Shown here: positions 7,741 through 17,205 of the stretch, in pieces
Position numbering within the stretch: the first letter of the stretch is position 1
Layout of the letters: each line of letters opens with the position of its first letter
Virus record (IMG/VR): IMGVR_UViG_2870464427_000002
Source: a virus
Taxonomy: Duplodnaviria > Heunggongvirae > Uroviricota > Caudoviricetes
Direction: 5' to 3' (one strand)
DNA length: 17,788 nucleotides
The notes under the pieces: model-generated
What the model was told of the DNA's origin: nothing
Database searches by the model: none
What the model saw: only the letters and a program-made list of their open reading frames with translations
Made by a program: the position numbers and the translations under genes

Positions 7741-8693
7741 TACCAGCTCCTGGTAATGGTTACGGCAGCAAGCTGGCTCACTGCGGGAGTGGTTTGTTGT
7801 ACCGTTGTACGTGCCTGCTCAACCAACGACGTGGCTTTATCGAACGTCGCTTCGGCGATGTCGCTGGTAATGTCGTCGAAAAGCGCCTGAGCATGGTCAA
7901 CCAGCGTACTGGCGTCATTGGCGCAGTCCCGGATACCTGGCATGTTACCCAGTAAAGCTTTAATCTGCGCCGACAACGCTTTTGGTAGGCCTGCCAGCGT
8001 TTGCAGATCCATTGGCTGTTTAAACAGGGTTTCGATGGCGTCGATTGTCTTTTTCAATGACGTAATTATCTTTTCACACTTTTCTTTTAACGCTTTGGCC
8101 TCTTTAATCATTGCTTTCACTTTTGCCACCGTTTTTTTAATATCTTCAATGGATTGTGTCAGTTCATCCAGCATCTCTTTGGCCTTACGCATACCTTCTT
8201 CAATGGCGTTTAATATCTGATCAAACCAGGACTCCACCTTGTCGGGAAAATCGCTCGCCTTTTCCTCGATGTTGGGCTCCTGGGTGGTAATCGCCGGAGG
8301 TAAAAGTGGATTTTTAGGATCGCCGGTGTACTCCTGGAGCGACATCGTTCCGTTTTGGGCAATCACATTGCCCCAGGGATCGGTGTGCTGGTGGGTGGCG
8401 GTTAGCTCCGTAATCACAAACCAGCCGCGATAATCGCCATTGCCAAATACCAGTGCCATCGCCTTGTGAGCAAGCATGGCTTCACGCAGTCGGTTCAGCT
8501 CTGTTGTGGGCTGGCAAAACTGGCTGTGCAGGGAAAATTCCAGCGCCAGCATATCCAGCTTATCGCCAATAAACTGCACGCCGGGTTTGCCTTCTATACG
8601 GGCATGTGTGGCGTAATCCACGCCCATTGTGCTTTTAAAGCCGTCCCAGAATGTGACAACCTTAAATTCAATCTCTCCTAAAACGGCATACAT
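7740..8693 (-). CDS. gpU-like tail protein with a long C-terminal coiled-coil extension
   Basis: 317 aa. The first ~120 aa (MYAVLGEIEFKV...GKPGVQFIG...L.LEF.L.........L..L...AM....MALVFGNGDYRGWFVITEL) resemble P2 gpU. The remaining ~190 aa are Lys/Glu/Ala-rich heptad-like sequence. Start overlaps the tape measure stop by 1 nt. Confidence 0.65.
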   Translation of the reverse strand: MYAVLGEIEFKVVTFWDGFKSTMGVDYATHARIEGKPGVQFIGDKLDMLALEFSLHSQFCQPTTELNRLREAMLAHKAMALVFGNGDYRGWFVITELTATHQHTDPWGNVIAQNGTMSLQEYTGDPKNPLLPPAITTQEPNIEEKASDFPDKVESWFDQILNAIEEGMRKAKEMLDELTQSIEDIKKTVAKVKAMIKEAKALKEKCEKIITSLKKTIDAIETLFKQPMDLQTLAGLPKALSAQIKALLGNMPGIRDCANDASTLVDHAQALFDDITSDIAEATFDKATSLVEQARTTVQQTTPAVSQLAAVTITRSW

Positions 8694-11068
8694 TAGGCAT
8701 ACCCCCGGCGCTGCTGCTGCGCCATTACATCGTTAATCATTCTTTCCAGTTCGCGTTTACTCATCGTCAACACGTTCTGAATCTCTTTAGTGGTGTTTTG
8801 TCCGTTACCCTGCACGGTAATTTGTGGCGAAAAATTCACCTGAACTTTTCCTGAGGAACGGGAAGGTAGCGTCGCCGCTTTGGTTACGGATTTACCAGGT
8901 AAAGAGGCAGATACGGGTTTGGCGGCTGTATTTTTTGCCGCTGGCGCCGATGACGGCGTAGCCGTTTTGCCGGATGGCGCGAGTTGTTTGCCCACCGGCG
9001 GCGTTAAAATCGCACCGGCAACGCCTGGAACAACGGTCGCGGGGGAGACGGATGCGGTATTAGTCGTGCTTGTAATAGCTGTAGCCGATCCTTCTGTACT
9101 AATACCCATCGTGGTTTTTAGCCAGTCTGGGATGGCGTTTTTTACCTGATCAATAATGCCTTTCAGAGCGGGGAAGGCATTCATTATGCCGTCAACCAGA
9201 CTGCCCAGAAGATTGCTGCCGAACTCGCTAAAACTTGCAGGCATCTCGACACCAAACCAATTCATCACACTGGAAAAGGCGCTATAGAACAACTCCAGCG
9301 GTGACCAGTCGAGAATCAACCGACAAATTCCTGCAATGCCGCCGTCAAAGGCCGTGGTGATACGTTGCCAGATGGTCGAAAAGAACCTGGAGATAGGCTC
9401 CCAGTTGCGATAAATCAGATAAGCAGCGCCCGCAATCGCAGTGATGACCAGACCAATGGGATTCATCAGTAGCACCCGGCCTAGTGAGAGAACGGTCCGA
9501 CCAACCAGTTTCAATGTTCCAATCAGGCCACGACCAAGCAGTTGCGTTAGCCATTTTGCGCCGCCACCCAATGACTTAACCGCTGATAGCATCTTACTTG
9601 CCCCGCCTGTGAGCGCCAGACTTGCCTTGACTTTCAGGAAGATATCGACCAGACGAATAAACGGCGAGGTGATGAGGTTCGCGCCCAGCTTTAAAACATT
9701 CAGCGCACCGTTAAACAGCCAAATCGCCCCGACGATTTTCGCGATGTTTTGCACCAGTGTCGGGTGCTCACGTAGCCAGGCGCTGAACTGACGAATAACC
9801 GGCGTAAGGCTTTGTGCCAGCTCGCCAATCAGCGGCATTAATTGCAAGCCAATGCTGAGCCATAAATCATTTAACGCCAGCTGTAACGCTTTAGTCTGTT
9901 CAATGGGCGAGGCCATTTGCGCAGAAAAGTCGGCATCAATCAGATTCTTGCTGGTGGCTTGCATGGCAGAGGCTTTTAACTGGCGATATTCCTCCATATT
10001 CGCCAGCATAGGGGCCAGGAATTCCACTGTTTGCGCATCGCCGAACATTTCCCCCAGATTAAACTGCGTCACCATCGATTGCAGCGCATTGCTGCGGGCA
10101 GATAAATCTTCGATCTGCATGGTGCGTTTGAAGGTGTCGAGGATCGCCGGATTCATCTTCTCAAGCTGCATTTGCACGATATGAGTCATGGCTTCGCTAA
10201 CACCCATACCGTTTTGCTGATGCTCAAGCAGAGAGCCTTGCAGATCAACGCCCTGGCTGACGAACCAGTAATCGGTTTTTTTCGAAAAGGTGGTTTGCAG
10301 AAAGTGGTCGAAATTCTCCGCCGCCGCACTGGCGCTGGCCCCGTTTTTCATGGCGATCTGCATGGTGGCGGTCAGTTCAGCCATACCTTCCAGACCCTGA
10401 GCGCCGGTTTTACCTGCAAATTTCTCTATCCACTGCGTTTGTTCAGCAATGGCAGGCCCACCGCTTTTGCTAATGCCGTACATCATGTTTTGCGCGGCGT
10501 GGAAATTTTCCGGGGCAATATTCAGTCGATCATGGGTTGCGAGCGCGGCATTCGCCCATGTTTCAGCACTTTCGCGCGTGGCGGTGGCAGCTTTGGCGAT
10601 CTCCGGCATATAACGGTTGAGATCCTGTATCGACGACAAATTGCCTTCGATCAGCGTTTGGGCTGCGTTCTGTAAGGTGGTCTGCTGCTGGTTAAAATCC
10701 ATGCTCCAGTCGCGCAGATTAAGGCTGAGCGTCTCGCGGGTTGTAGCATTCATCCCACCTTTGGTCGCCATATTGACCATGTTGTCCTGAAACTCATACG
10801 GCAACTTCCAGTCGGGGGCTTCAACATTGAATACTTTGCTAAATTGCCCGGCAAATGTTTGGGTTTTCTCCATCAGATTAGCGCGGCTGCGGCTATTTTC
10901 CTCCAGGCGGAGAGCGGAATCGGCAAGCTGCTGCGTTAGTTTGATAACTGTCGCCTGCTGAGTAGAGAGAGTTAACAATGTTCTGGCGTTGAGTGAGCCG
11001 TAACGGGCTATTGCCTGCGTCAACGTCTCATTACGCGCCTGAAGCTGGGTAATAATATCGTTGGCCAA
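8693..11068 (-). CDS. tail tape measure protein
   Basis: 791 aa. Alpha-helical N-terminal region, central hydrophobic Gly-rich segments (LIGTLKLVGRTVLSLGRVLLMNPIGLVITAIAGAAYLIY), Ser/Thr/Pro-rich C-terminal region. Lies between the chaperone and baseplate genes. The track start is a TTG codon, so the exact start is uncertain. Confidence 0.85.
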   Translation of the reverse strand: MANDIITQLQARNETLTQAIARYGSLNARTLLTLSTQQATVIKLTQQLADSALRLEENSRSRANLMEKTQTFAGQFSKVFNVEAPDWKLPYEFQDNMVNMATKGGMNATTRETLSLNLRDWSMDFNQQQTTLQNAAQTLIEGNLSSIQDLNRYMPEIAKAATATRESAETWANAALATHDRLNIAPENFHAAQNMMYGISKSGGPAIAEQTQWIEKFAGKTGAQGLEGMAELTATMQIAMKNGASASAAAENFDHFLQTTFSKKTDYWFVSQGVDLQGSLLEHQQNGMGVSEAMTHIVQMQLEKMNPAILDTFKRTMQIEDLSARSNALQSMVTQFNLGEMFGDAQTVEFLAPMLANMEEYRQLKASAMQATSKNLIDADFSAQMASPIEQTKALQLALNDLWLSIGLQLMPLIGELAQSLTPVIRQFSAWLREHPTLVQNIAKIVGAIWLFNGALNVLKLGANLITSPFIRLVDIFLKVKASLALTGGASKMLSAVKSLGGGAKWLTQLLGRGLIGTLKLVGRTVLSLGRVLLMNPIGLVITAIAGAAYLIYRNWEPISRFFSTIWQRITTAFDGGIAGICRLILDWSPLELFYSAFSSVMNWFGVEMPASFSEFGSNLLGSLVDGIMNAFPALKGIIDQVKNAIPDWLKTTMGISTEGSATAITSTTNTASVSPATVVPGVAGAILTPPVGKQLAPSGKTATPSSAPAAKNTAAKPVSASLPGKSVTKAATLPSRSSGKVQVNFSPQITVQGNGQNTTKEIQNVLTMSKRELERMINDVMAQQQRRGYA

Positions 11069-11257
11069 AATTGTTTCTCTTTAAATATTGATAATGGCCC
11101 GCTGGTTATTTTTCTAAAAAAAGGGGCAGGGAAGAAATAAACCTGACGGGCTTGGGAAACTCGCAGACATCAGGTCTGCGAGTCATATTCGATTTTTATT
11201 TGGGCGCTGGCTTCATCCAGCCAGTTGCTAAAGTCATCGACGGTAAGGGCGTCTATC

Positions 11258-11575
11258 TCACTGGGTGGAAAGCGAAACCATCTCGCCAGTAACGCCATCG
11301 CTTGCCATAACAGTGGCGGATTCTGTAGCCACGCTAAGCATGGATTGAAATCGTTTCTGCAATGCCTGGTAATCCAGCAAATCCATTTCAGCTAAATCTT
11401 CTGGCACCAGTCCGGTCATTGCCGCCATTAGCGGTTCATCCCACTCTTCAGGTTTTTCGCTGATCCGGCGCGCGTTGCGCATATCTTTTACTTTCAGGCG
11501 ACGTAATTGCAGAGTGTTAATTACGTCTCCCGCCGCTGAAGTAAACGGGAACTGTAAGATATAATGTTCTTTCAT
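11258..11575 (-). CDS. tail assembly chaperone, P2 gpE family
   Basis: 105 aa, acidic, in the conserved position between tube and tape measure. An alternative frame stays open past its stop (see findings). Confidence 0.75.
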   Translation of the reverse strand: MKEHYILQFPFTSAAGDVINTLQLRRLKVKDMRNARRISEKPEEWDEPLMAAMTGLVPEDLAEMDLLDYQALQKRFQSMLSVATESATVMASDGVTGEMVSLSTQ

Positions 11576-11625: not shown

Positions 11626-12150
11626 TTAGCCACCGATGTTATTGCGATAGGTACTTAATTGATCCACACCATTAACCCGGAAAATATTGGCCATATAATC
11701 AAGTTCAAGCAGCGTTTCACCATCAACTACTTGTTTAATATAAGTGCAACCAAAGGCGCTGCTGAATTCCGGGTTTTCATTCTGTTTAAATGTGCCCAGT
11801 GGATTCTTTTTAAACATCACGGTTAAATGTGTCACTAGCGCTAATTGATTCGCTTTCCCCTGGGAGTTATAGCAATCAATACTGGAGCGGCACTGTAATG
11901 CAACCGCCTGCCACGGGTTTGCCGTTTTACGCATTACGTCCTGATAGAAGGAGTTCCATTTAATTTCGCCCTCCAGTTTATCGAAACCCGCCGGGAGTTC
12001 GATTTTACCCACCATGCCCAGTGCTTTATGCTCCTGCATAATTAAACTGACATCCGGCAATTTAATTTCGGTTGCACGACCTAAAAGGTTATTACCATCG
12101 AGATAAATATTGGCGTTGGTAATACGGTTAATTTGAATTTTTCCAGCCAT
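11626..12150 (-). CDS. tail tube protein (P2 FII family)
   Basis: 174 aa. C-terminal ...VNGVDQLSTYRNNIGG closely matches the P2 FII C-terminus (VNGVD.L...R.NIG). Start overlaps the sheath stop by 1 nt. Confidence 0.85.
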   Translation of the reverse strand: MAGKIQINRITNANIYLDGNNLLGRATEIKLPDVSLIMQEHKALGMVGKIELPAGFDKLEGEIKWNSFYQDVMRKTANPWQAVALQCRSSIDCYNSQGKANQLALVTHLTVMFKKNPLGTFKQNENPEFSSAFGCTYIKQVVDGETLLELDYMANIFRVNGVDQLSTYRNNIGG

Positions 12151-13573
12151 TAGCTATTGCTCTCCAGAGAGACTAAATATTCAGAAGTAATTTCAGTTTC
12201 AAACGTCAGACGTTCCAGCGGCGGCGGCGGGGTGAATTTATAGCTCAGCAATAAATGCCCAGCGCTGAGTTCAGTCGGTGAATTTCGCGCCGGATCGTAC
12301 CAGCATTCAAAGCCAAGCAGTGCGCCGTCGGCAATCAGCTTACGGCCCCAGGTATTTACCGATTCGGTCAGGGCATCAATCAGCGCCTGATTAATCGGCA
12401 TATCAATATACTGCTGACTGAAATAACGGATTGACTCATTAATTACATCGCCTGTCCGGCGGACGTTTTCAAAGTTACGCATATGGGTCACGGTAGGCCA
12501 CGCTGCAGTGCGGTTGCCCCACAAGCGCAGACCAGAGCCGTAACTATTGAAAATAGTGGTAATGCCGTTTTCGTTTAGCTGATTCACTTCGCTTTGTGGA
12601 TCATCAATCATTGCGGAAAGCGAACGTTCAATACCGGTAATACCCTGAATTTCTTGGTTTGAGTTGCTCCACCAGAAACCTTTTTCGAGGTCTACTTTGG
12701 CACGTAGCCCGGCAGCGCGCGAAGAGAGCGGTTCGAGAACTTCCTGGTTAGTGATGCCATCGTAAACTTTGACGTGTGGGTAACATAAACGCGCACGATC
12801 AGAGCTGGTGTTGAAGTTGATAGCCCCTTGCGAACCGCGTCCTGCCAATACCTGCTGGAATGTCGTCCCAATCGGGGCATCAATGTAGGTAATCGCACCA
12901 AGTTTTTCCGCTTGTGCAATCAGCTCTGTAGTTACTGATTTTTGCGTACAGAACACGGGAGCAAGCAGGATTTTGGCGTAGAAACCATACAGGTTATAGG
13001 TGTCCTGTAGCAGTTTCATCCCCGTGCGGTCGCCTGCGGTATTTACGGTACCGATAATATCGGCTGCGGTGACCTTTGTAGGGTCGCACCAGGAATAATA
13101 GGCACAAACTTTCGCACCAGGAGGAATGTCGGCTCCTTTACGGGTAATTATGCCTGTTTGTTCATCTACGCTAAATGCTGCGGTGTTAAAGGTTGATGAA
13201 TTTGATGAAGAGGGCTTTAGTACCACGTTACGCACATTGCGGTGAGCGAGCTTCGCCTGGTTGTTAGCATCAAAAGTGATACTCTCATTGCTGATGTTGG
13301 AGCCATGTTTTGCCGGATCCAGCACGTTAATCACCACCACCGTACCGGCACCGTGGTCATAAATTGCCTTCAGTGCCTGTGGGATCGTAAAGTTAGCCTG
13401 AGTCGAGCCAAACTGCGCAGCATCGCTTTCAGAAAGGCATAATGTTGGTTTATTTACCGGACCGCAGGGGCTGTACCGATTAAAGCGATGACGGCGGATT
13501 TTACCGCTTTAACCGGACGCGGGCCGGTTTCAATTTCAATAGTTTCTACACCGTGCAGATAATTAGCTGCCAT
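12150..13573 (-). pseudogene. contractile tail sheath (P2 FI / Mu L family) interrupted by an apparent 1-nt frameshift near 13457-13468
   Basis: From ATG 13573 one frame encodes MAANYLHGVETIEIETGPRPVKAVKSAVIALIGTAPAVR then stops (TAA 13454-13456). The adjacent frame is open from 13508 and continues PVNKPTLCLSESDAAQFG...VVVINV... through the 396-aa track ORF, whose C-terminus (LRLWGNRTAAWPT...YKFTPPPPLERLTFE) is sheath-like. One extra G in mRNA GCGGTCCGG would join the two frames. Confidence 0.7.
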
Positions 13574-13760
13574 GTACAATTTCCTCTACGTTATTTTGTT
13601 CTTCCTGAGTGATGACAGGAGTCAGATGATTGCGGGCAATCATGGTCATGACCCACTCGTTGTCTTCTGGCAGATCAATTTCACTGTTCGGCCACAATAA
13701 GATTTCTTGTCCATCGGCAAGGGTGACGCCGCTTGCTGGGCCGTTGTAGATGTATTTCAT
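13563..13760 (-). CDS. small hypothetical protein upstream of sheath
   Basis: 65-aa ORF overlapping both neighbours. Its position recalls the small gene preceding the sheath gene in Mu-like tail modules. No motif recognised. Confidence 0.45.
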   Translation of the reverse strand: MKYIYNGPASGVTLADGQEILLWPNSEIDLPEDNEWVMTMIARNHLTPVITQEEQNNVEEIVHGS

Positions 13761-15889: not shown

Positions 15890-17205
15890 GGGTCTTCCCT
15901 TGTTGTGGTGGCTGAAGGCATGATAATGGTGTATTTAATCGCCAGAGGTCACCGCCATGGACGAAAAGTCCCTCTACGCTCATATTCTCAACCTGTCCGA
16001 TCCGTGGCAGGTAAAGTCCCTTTCTCTCGATGAAAATGCCGGTTCTGTTACTGTCACTATTGAGATCGCTGAAAACACCCGGCTAGCCTGTCCGACCTGC
16101 GGTAAATCCTGTTCTGTTCACGATCACCGTCATCGTAAATGGCGCCATCTTGATACCTGCCAGTTCACCACTATTGTTGAAGCCGATGTTCCACGAATTA
16201 TGTGTCCGGAGCATGGCTGCCTGACGTTGCCTGTTCCGTGGGCTGGCCCCGGAAGCCGGTATACGTTGCTATTCGAATCGTTCGTTCTCTCATGGCTGAA
16301 AATCAGCACCGTTGATGCTGTCAGGAAGCAACTTAAGCTCAGTTGGAATGCGGTTGACGGCATTATGACCCGGGCAGTTAAGCGAGGTCTTGCCCGGATA
16401 AAAAAGCCATTATCCGCCCGTCATATGAATGTGGATGAGGTCGCCTTTAAAAAAGGACATCGTTACATAACGGTGATCTCCGATCGCGATGGTCGGGCGC
16501 TGGCCTTAACGGATGATCGCGGCACAGAGAGTCTTGCCGGCTATCTTCGCACGCTCACTGATGGGCAGTTGCTGGCTATCAAAACGCTCTCAATGGACAT
16601 GAACGCGGGCTATATAAGAGCAGCGCGTATCCACTTACCCAGTGCGGTTGAGAAAATCGCCTTTGACCGCTTCCATGTGGCGAAGCAACTGGGCGAGGTA
16701 GTTGATAAAACCCGTCAGAATGAACATCCGCACCTCCCTGTTGAAAGCCGACACCAGGCAAAAGGAACCCGCTTCCTGTGGCAGTACAGCGATAAGTGGA
16801 TGACCGAATCCCGGCAGGAAAAGCTGATGTGGCTGCGTGCACAGATGAAGCTGACGAGCCAGTGCTGGGCGCTGAAAGAGCTGGCAAAGGATATCTGGAA
16901 CAGGCCATGGAGCGAGGAAAGACGGAGTGACTGGCAGAGATGGTTGGCGCTGGCGGCTAACAGTGACGTTCCCATGATGAAAAATGCCGCGAAAACGATA
17001 GGAAAAAGGCTGTACGGGATCCTGAATGCGATGCGACACAGTGTCTCAAACGGAAATGCGGAGGCACTTAACAGCAAGATCAGGCTGCTGAGGATAAAAG
17101 CCAGGGGATACCGAAACCGGGAGCGCTTTAAACTGGGGGTGATGTTCCACTACGGAAAGCTGAATATGGCGTTCTGAGCCTTCCCACCATGATCGGGGAA
17201 GACCC
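15890..17205 (+). mobile_element. ISL3-family insertion sequence, 1316 bp, apparently intact
   Basis: Terminal inverted repeats GGGTCTTCCC (15890-15899) and GGGAAGACCC (17196-17205), with further inner matches (TGGTGG). Flanked by 8-bp direct repeats ATGTGTAT. Carries a single transposase ORF. Confidence 0.8.
15957..17177 (+). CDS. ISL3-family transposase
   Basis: 406 aa. N-terminal zinc-ribbon CPTCGKSCSVHDHRHRKWRHLD and the MNVDEVAFKKGHRYITVISD block are characteristic of ISL3 transposases. Confidence 0.85.
   Translation: MDEKSLYAHILNLSDPWQVKSLSLDENAGSVTVTIEIAENTRLACPTCGKSCSVHDHRHRKWRHLDTCQFTTIVEADVPRIMCPEHGCLTLPVPWAGPGSRYTLLFESFVLSWLKISTVDAVRKQLKLSWNAVDGIMTRAVKRGLARIKKPLSARHMNVDEVAFKKGHRYITVISDRDGRALALTDDRGTESLAGYLRTLTDGQLLAIKTLSMDMNAGYIRAARIHLPSAVEKIAFDRFHVAKQLGEVVDKTRQNEHPHLPVESRHQAKGTRFLWQYSDKWMTESRQEKLMWLRAQMKLTSQCWALKELAKDIWNRPWSEERRSDWQRWLALAANSDVPMMKNAAKTIGKRLYGILNAMRHSVSNGNAEALNSKIRLLRIKARGYRNRERFKLGVMFHYGKLNMAF

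Follow-up and report, generated by a model that had tools for sequence, protein, structure and literature searches.

The stretch of DNA analyzed here (IMG/VR virus record IMGVR_UViG_2870464427_000002, Caudoviricetes; 17,788 nucleotides (nt), referred to as the window) carries a contractile-tail gene cluster, in which the gene of a gpE-like tail assembly chaperone is flanked by those of the tail tube and the tape measure protein; all of these lie on the minus strand. The N-terminal part of the chaperone matches Phage_TAC_7 (PF10109) with 65.7 bits (cut-off 25), and the same open reading frame (ORF) of 105 amino acids (aa) is labeled ‘phage tail assembly protein’ by RefSeq in identical Escherichia coli loci. 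An earlier note on this DNA had pointed to an open alternative frame that extends past the chaperone stop, and had proposed that it encodes part of a longer product made by programmed frameshifting, as known for E and E' of phage P2. In the following, the chaperone frame is called frame 0 and the presumptive extension E'. The features of the overlap are:

11575..11258, minus strand: gpE-like tail assembly chaperone, 105 aa, frame 0, stop TGA at 11260-11258 (Phage_TAC_7, E 4e-18)
11170..11394, minus strand: whole open +1 frame, between TAG 11394-11392 and TGA 11172-11170
11347..11353, minus strand: proposed +1 cassette CGA_UUU_C (CGA 11353-11351; Phe76 UUU 11350-11348; C 11347 completing UUC)
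11170..11346, minus strand: predicted E' part after the shift, 58 codons NPCLAWLQNPPLLWQAMALLARWFRFPPSEIDALTVDDFSNWLDEASAQIKIEYDSQT and stop TGA 11172-11170 (by translation and P2 E' homology)
11245..11292, minus strand: conserved E' core motif LLARWFRFPPSEIDAL, overlapping the 3' end of frame 0 (last 11 codons and stop)

The +1 frame is open for 73 codons (11391..11173) and reads ...MALLARWFRFPPSEIDALTVDDFSNWLDEASAQIKIEYDSQT exactly as quoted in the earlier note. It is equivalent to a −2 frame and continues for 29 codons beyond the chaperone stop. The −1 frame closes soon, with a stop two codons past the gpE stop. That no canonical slippery heptamer is present also proved correct, as neither an X_XXY_YYZ motif nor a homopolymer run was found in the overlap; a −1 shift and transcriptional slippage were rejected on these grounds. 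By simple arithmetic, the chance of 73 consecutive open codons is (61/64)^73 or ~0.03, which is mildly unusual. The open frame is raised above chance by the homology of the extension.

The Pfam model of P2 E' (Phage_P2_GpE, PF06528) matched the window extension with 17.5-17.8 bits, under its gathering score of 23 bits. Across 23 predicted chaperone-E' fusions, this model matched 14 (best E 7e-6) and Phage_TAC_7 matched all 23. A profile built from the 23 fusions aligned with P2 E+E' (hhalign 94%, E 1.3e-7); the 124 aligned columns begin at the N-terminus and include the E' core. The P2 record annotates E+E' as a −1 frameshift product, and P2 E' is translated only as a fusion (P2 record; PMC3931495). 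In a tblastn search against phage records, the extension was found to be kept in Salmonella, Escherichia phage PhiKM, Klebsiella phage KP12, a Ralstonia phage, Pseudomonas phage Bise and others. Within the E' core of the alignment, L96 and P104 are invariant, and A97, F100, F102, E106, I107 and L110 are conserved in at least 90% of the sequences. The predicted fusions matched no NCBIfam model, and a profile search against the PDB retrieved no solved relative. Taken together, these comparisons support the view that the extension is a homologue of P2 E'.

The relative position of the two frames was assessed in 130 loci (42 loci from one-genome-per-species bacterial contigs, 80 from IMG/VR, and phage records), with chaperone and E' frames called by hidden Markov models built from the first examples. 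These loci span Enterobacterales, Burkholderiales, Pseudomonas and others. The E' frame was in the +1 register relative to the chaperone in 127 of the 130 loci, in the −1 register in one and in frame in two; the extension frame is therefore conserved in orthologous clusters, the opposite of the outcome that the earlier note had named as a refutation. The −1 exception is a Pasteurella Mu-like phage, and all other phage matches of the tblastn search were in the +1 register. Both in-frame loci are explained by single-base indels. In L032 (Apirhabdus apintestini chromosome), a 1-nt deletion is located 14 nt upstream of UUU_C and creates the junction DYLG|CRPDF, and in L126 the indel lies in a G-run inside E'. 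Two further proteins of 134 aa (P0001 and P0002) have chaperone and E' joined in frame at ...TES|LLWQAM. Such natural in-frame fusions are rare, look like mutations or assembly errors, and would make only the long form; considered as guides to the junction, they were compatible with the site proposed below and did not pinpoint the slip. One locus of the sample (L022, NZ_PJIO01000028.1), a PhiKM/Enterobacterales-type chaperone locus on an 8.2-kilobase low-coverage contig of ‘Arthrobacter sp. GMC3’, is probably a contamination of an actinobacterial assembly.

The substitution pattern was examined as mean pairwise variation over 79 distinct ungapped sequences. Upstream of the proposed site, the third positions of frame 0 were the most variable (0.44-0.46 vs 0.08-0.26 for first and second positions). 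Over the 30 nt that follow the site, all three positions were variable, as would be expected of a linker. Between +33 and +63 nt, still within the frame-0 ORF, the variation peaked at the third positions of the +1 frame (0.40 vs 0.30 and 0.26), and the same pattern was found between +63 and +90 nt (0.22 vs 0.09 and 0.07) and persisted past the frame-0 stop. These data support purifying selection that follows the +1 frame inside the overlap. Since the linker is variable at all positions, the periodicity alone cannot pinpoint the slip codon.

An interval for the shift was obtained from the positions of stop codons. In seven loci, the frame-0 stop is located 8-11 codons past the last conserved chaperone Phe and upstream of the E' motif, and in seven other loci the +1 frame opens only 8 nt before the codon of this Phe. 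The intersection of the stop-bounded overlaps across the 127 loci comprises 32 nt (−8 to +23 nt, counted from the first base of the Phe codon UUU), and TTTC is the sole invariant sequence of the DNA alignment in this interval. TTT followed by C was present in 128 of 130 loci, the exceptions being the −1-type locus (TTA G) and the fused L032 (GAT TTC). The Phe codon was TTT in all 109 distinct +1 loci. The codon that follows it was CAG in 64 of these loci, CAA in 30, CTG in seven, CGC in four, CGG in two, and CGT and CAT in one each; four amino acids (Gln, Arg, Leu, His) are thus encoded at this position, and the first base is always C. Among 21 loci with 59-67% guanine plus cytosine (GC), only 3-34% of the Phe codons in the flanking genes were TTT, and the focal codon was TTT in 21/21. 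As an internal control, TTC occurred at the two conserved Phe positions within the E' motif WFxF in 17/103 and 10/103 loci, respectively. The wider family allows V, L or A at the focal Phe position (P2, Pasteurella, Mu). The preceding codon, which would occupy the E site of the ribosome, was CGA in 94/109 loci, and it was CGA in 96/97 cases where Arg is encoded there (background: CGA makes up ~9.5% of the Arg codons there). Other codons, ten in all, were also found at the E-site position (GCN, UCN, ACA, GUG, AAA, CGG). In the chaperone ORF of the window, 11350-11347 is the only in-frame UUU_C.

These results refine the earlier proposal, which had left both the site and the direction of the shift uncertain: the sequence comparisons support a shift in the +1 direction at CGA_UUU_C (11353-11347), 88 nt upstream of the gpE stop. 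Since the site lies this far upstream, ~29 C-terminal chaperone codons would be replaced, and the protein would not be extended from its end. The E' frame contains two further UUU_C tetranucleotides in UGG_UUU_CGC_UUU_CCA, which encodes its WFRF motif (window 11280-11266, minus strand). If UUU_C is slippery, a fraction of the ribosomes making the long form would shift again there; the Phe codons of the WFRF motif are often UUC in GC-rich relatives.

No stimulatory element was recognized near the proposed site. The fold of the downstream RNA was no better than that of shuffled sequences when the window sequence was analyzed alone (z −0.9), and the consensus energy of −0.44 kcal/mol obtained with RNAalifold over 19 diverse sequences indicated no conserved structure. 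Rfam had no match in the window, and no Shine-Dalgarno (SD)-like element was seen within 20 nt upstream of UUU_C. A scan for terminators and promoters around the chaperone gene yielded nothing relevant. A perfect 7-base-pair hairpin (CGCAGAC-CTGAT-GTCTGCG; 11162-11180, minus strand) holds the E' stop TGA in its loop, and as no T-run follows, it is not a canonical terminator.

Gene position, an E'-like extension, frame conservation and selection on the +1 frame all agree with the core claim of the earlier note, a P2 E/E'-like chaperone product made by programmed frameshifting. We consider it likely that the chaperone gene makes a second, longer protein through a low-level +1 slip of the P-site tRNA at UUU_C. 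Most ribosomes would stay in frame 0 and produce the 105-aa gpE-like chaperone, presumably the major product, and a minority would slip with codon 76 UUU (11350-11348) in the P site and CGA in the E site. The tRNA-Phe with anticodon GAA reads both UUU and UUC. Therefore, a peptidyl-tRNA on UUU can pair perfectly one base further on. With the A site empty, peptidyl-tRNA-Phe would move one base forward and re-pair with UUC (11349-11347), and decoding would restart at AAU (11346-11344). We infer the slip and its direction, +1 and not −2. The conservation of CGA suggests that this codon, through its I·A wobble in the E site, may stimulate the slip. As neither a conserved downstream structure nor an upstream SD-like element was found, a low constitutive efficiency would be expected, probably in the per-cent range. 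By analogy, such an efficiency would suit a chaperone pair with a minority long form.

The predicted long form has 134 aa, join(11575..11348, 11346..11173), and reads ...LQKRF|NPCLAWLQNPPLLWQAMALLARWFRFPPSEIDALTVDDFSNWLDEASAQIKIEYDSQT; the tryptic junction peptide predicted for a +1 shift at UUU_C is FNPCLAWLQNPPLLWQAMALLAR. It would consist of the chaperone domain (aa 1-76), a linker and the E' domain with the core LLARWFRFPPSEIDAL...W...A..QIK. The 29-residue frame-0 tail, which is absent from the predicted long form, is poorly conserved; some relatives have only 8-11 residues of it. By analogy with lambda G/GT and P2 E/E+E' (PMC5009743), the fusion may function in tail assembly: both forms would bind the tape measure protein, and the extra domain of the rare long form would recruit the tube subunit and start tail polymerization, with the slip frequency setting the ratio of short to long form.

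E' could instead be made as a separate protein of 42 aa from the internal ATG at 11298-11296 (MALLARWF...), without any frameshift; no other start for such a protein is plausible in the +1 frame. This start would retain the conserved core, an ATG is present somewhere between UUU_C and the core motif in 59 of the 109 distinct loci, and the phiE255, Komp_PAO1_1 and BcepMu records annotate a small separate ORF; automatic pipelines sometimes label such ORFs ‘GpE family phage tail protein’ or ‘gp16 conserved domain protein’. However, no SD-like sequence precedes ATG 11298, and candidate starts preceded by an SD of 4 nt or more were found in only 6/109 loci. The position of the ATG is not conserved, many lineages (PhiKM, Ralstonia, Bise) have no start codon there, and conservation of the +1 frame (P-x-x-L-W) reaches upstream of it. 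An independent start would also leave the synonymous conservation of CGA_UUU_C 50 nt upstream unexplained, and the homologous P2 protein is made only as part of a fusion (PMC3931495). Hence, we regard separate initiation as unlikely. A fusion that arises by another event, either a −2 shift or a +1 slip elsewhere in the overlap, is decidedly unlikely. Mu gp41, a member of the same Pfam family, does use −2 (PMC5009743), but no codon of the overlap (11391-11258) is competent to re-pair two bases back and a G-run like that of Mu (CGGGGGCGA) is absent, which makes a −2 event unlikely; this candidate was rejected. Alternative +1 sites are CUU_U near the 3' end (UCG_CUU_UCC, 11273-11270), which has the sequence of the prfB shift site, and GUU_U after the SD-like GAGAUGG; at the downstream place, the sequence GAGGUG_GUU_UAG of 26 loci combines an SD-like element with a stop behind it. 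Against these sites, frame 0 has already ended before them in seven loci, they are not conserved, and a shift there would cost E' its conserved L-W...LLARW part, on which selection in the +1 frame acts.

The GAG_GUG_GUU_UAG sequence ends frame 0 in those 26 loci (L003, L017, L018, L020 and ~20 others) 75 nt after UUU_C and has a UUU in the +1 frame, a prfB-like arrangement; it could offer ribosomes a second, stop-dependent way of entering the E' frame, or could merely result from the conservation of the ARWF codons. Finally, the open frame could be an unexpressed relic of a former E', for instance after an indel in a −1-type ancestor, or part of a decaying cluster. The sheath gene of the window is frameshifted, the cluster has no head genes, and rare indel variants of the chaperone region exist. 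On the other hand, the +1 layout is kept in the 127 of 130 loci over several bacterial orders, including the active phages BcepMu, phiE255, PhiKM and Bise, the substitution pattern indicates purifying selection on the +1 frame, and many E. coli genomes whose sheath gene is intact share the chaperone/E' region at 100% identity. A mere relic is thus very improbable.

Several points weigh against a +1 slip at UUU_C. The focal Phe is also a residue of the chaperone domain, and part of the TTT conservation could reflect amino-acid constraint; this constraint would not explain the synonymous choice of TTT. The stop-bounded interval presumes a shift site at one fixed position across the family, and the loci are phylogenetically related, so that counts such as 127/130 do not represent independent events. 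The E' of the window itself falls below the Pfam gathering threshold, and its in-frame ATG 11298 would allow a free-standing protein. The A-site codon CAA is not rare, and together with the missing SD-like element and downstream structure this means that the efficiency could be very low. In the source strain, the frameshifted sheath gene may render the cluster non-functional. No protein, ribosome-profiling or reporter evidence was found for this locus or any other member of the group.

The window locus and P2 E/E+E' share the gene order tube – E – E' – tape measure and the Pfam family Phage_TAC_7, with a match of the window E' to Phage_P2_GpE below the gathering score, and P2 E+E' (142 aa) is alignable end to end with the predicted window fusion (134 aa). 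In both systems, E' has no ribosome-binding site of its own, and the P2 shift site and the one proposed here are at most a few codons away from where the chaperone domain ends. In contrast, P2 uses a −1 shift at T6G (FETUD operon), and the window E' is in the +1 frame without a T-run. P2 slips on U6, whereas a single-tRNA slip in the P site at UUU_C is proposed here. The long frame overlap (131 nt) and the short form with its 29-aa frame-0 tail are also unlike P2. Judged from sequence, the locus is a P2 E/E' homologue that fails the defining −1/T-run feature of P2 and appears to behave like the UUU_C class of +1 sites.

Such sites are known from other systems. Tail-chaperone frameshifts can be −1, −2 or +1, and in bacteria +1 shifts are particularly favored at UUU_Ynn, as in YopN-TyeA (PMC5009743). 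A large screen placed TTT_C among the tetramers with the most efficient +1 shifting (bioRxiv 10.1101/2025.10.02.679949), and amalgaviruses use UUU_CGN (PMC5052127). PA-X of influenza virus is made by +1 P-site slippage on UCC_UUU_CGU at ~1%, with an effect of the E-site codon and no other stimulator (PMC3498833). The window site has the same UUU_C tetranucleotide, the same proposed re-pairing of tRNA-Phe from UUU to UUC and a largely conserved E-site codon, and neither site has a stimulatory RNA structure or SD element. BcepMu and locus L035 read TCC_TTT_CGC, which corresponds to the first eight bases of the PA-X motif UCC_UUU_CGU. Unlike PA-X, the sites described here occur in a phage/bacterial setting and would serve a structural-assembly role, their usual E-site codon is CGA, and the A-site codon is mostly CAR (Gln) and not CGN.

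Mu gp41 and lambda G/GT resemble the predicted window pair in that two chaperone forms in a fixed ratio are encoded just upstream of the tape measure gene. The G:GT ratio of lambda is 30:1, and shifting in P2 is 2-3-fold higher (PMC5009743). Mu also has its shifted frame in the ‘+1’ register, and neighbors of the window chaperone (Mor activator, Gp37-family protein) are Mu-like. However, Mu shifts by −2 on its G-run near the gp41 stop, and its extension has no E' motif by eye in the translation. Lambda uses −1 at G_GGA_AAG, and its proteins have no sequence similarity to the window pair. In BcepMu (NC_005882), gp41 is a homologue of the window chaperone, and the E' ORF, there called gp42, has the same +1 register and the same TTT_C. 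The BcepMu record describes gp42 as a free-standing analogue of ‘lambda G’ that slips into gp43. The comparison of the 127 loci instead suggests that gp42 is the +1 extension of gp41 at TCC_TTT_CGC. In BcepMu (24602-25363) and its close relatives, the linker is unusually long, and the tape measure gene follows only after a gap of ~270 nt.

The genes surrounding the chaperone gene in the window are:

12150-13574, minus strand: sheath gene (Pfam Phage_sheath_1 / 1C)
11626-12150, minus strand: tail tube gene (FII-like), directly upstream of the chaperone gene (Pfam Phage_tube, E 3.7e-56)
11068..8693, minus strand: tape measure gene, 791 aa, directly downstream of the chaperone gene (Pfam PhageMin_Tail; RefSeq ‘phage tail tape measure protein’)

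A segment of 701 bases spanning the chaperone gene is 100% identical to E. coli chromosomes (for example IAI39 and CE10) and was present in 194 of 5,426 complete E. coli genomes. In IAI39, the cluster adjoins pgi and lysC. It comprises a Mor-family activator, an insertion sequence (IS) element, a holin, a lytic transglycosylase and a Gp37-family protein, along with the sheath, the tube, the 105-aa ‘phage tail assembly protein’, the tape measure, the baseplate and fiber genes. No head genes were found in the IAI39 cluster (18.7 kilobases shown; L001, NC_011750 4626425-4645125). The gene order of the window and IAI39 clusters equals that of the carotovoricin tailocin of Pectobacterium (PMC13195805). 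The first 77 residues of the Pectobacterium chaperone P0052 are identical to L081, and L081-L110 have ~50% identity to the window chaperone. The presence of lysis genes, a Mor activator and a complete contractile tail, the absence of head genes and the carotovoricin-like order make the cluster a tailocin candidate; instead of being the remnant of a prophage, it may represent an R-type tailocin that occurs in E. coli and Salmonella (STM4212/4213 region).

Compared to IAI39, the sheath gene of the window lacks one base of a C-run (CCCCC→CCCC) and has an adjacent G→A substitution (window 13467-13470, minus strand). The deletion breaks up the 474-aa gene, leaving an N-terminal ORF of 41 aa (13579..13454) and a remainder of 396 aa, and the sheath may be a pseudogene in the source strain or may reflect a sequencing error. 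An ISL3-family transposase (15957-17177, plus strand) is inserted between the Mor/ClbS side and the holin. This element has only ~85% identity to ISEc53 at the corresponding place in IAI39 and is inverted, which suggests that IS elements inserted independently at the regulatory end of the two clusters.

That tail chaperone genes use programmed frameshifting is well known; what appears to be new, and is supported by the comparisons above, is a +1 variant at UUU_C in a P2-type pair. The chaperone and E' ORFs were joined in none of the eight related phage and prophage records that were inspected, where E' is unannotated or a tiny separate gene, and the RefSeq entry of IAI39 has no annotation across the 190 bases that separate the chaperone from the tape measure gene. 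In the literature searched, no description of a CGA_UUU_C +1 site was found, and an earlier mention is possible. The authors of the KS10 genome found no frameshift site upstream of the tape measure gene of that phage (PMC2628397), which may or may not carry this type of chaperone. More tentatively, CGA_UUU_C (generally NNN_UUU_CNN) could represent a dedicated PA-X-type +1 cassette of phages and bacteria, which replaces the −1 U-run of the P2 type in a large clade and has been overlooked in the records, with the I·A wobble of CGA in the E site as a new bacterial +1 stimulator. As part of the same joint and still doubtful interpretation, no stop codon, SD element or RNA structure would be needed, the clade would comprise BcepMu-like phages and carotovoricin-like tailocins in Enterobacterales, Burkholderiales and Pseudomonas, and BcepMu gp42/gp43 would be mis-annotated.

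Nearly all characterized tail-chaperone frameshifts are −1 shifts on heptamers, and predictors built on −1 heptamers or on rare-codon rules for +1 shifts would miss the UUU_C site. Neither the RefSeq annotation of IAI39 nor the inspected records of related phages contain the predicted long form, and the same presumably applies to related tailocins, among them the probable carotovoricin cluster. If true, the +1 shift would provide a widely conserved natural bacterial case of the minimal UUU_C signal, which has been established mainly in eukaryotic viruses, and a clean system, combining E. coli genetics with a tail-assembly read-out, for studying how E-site and A-site codons tune +1 slippage. 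Where tailocins are engineered from such clusters, the site would have to stay intact.

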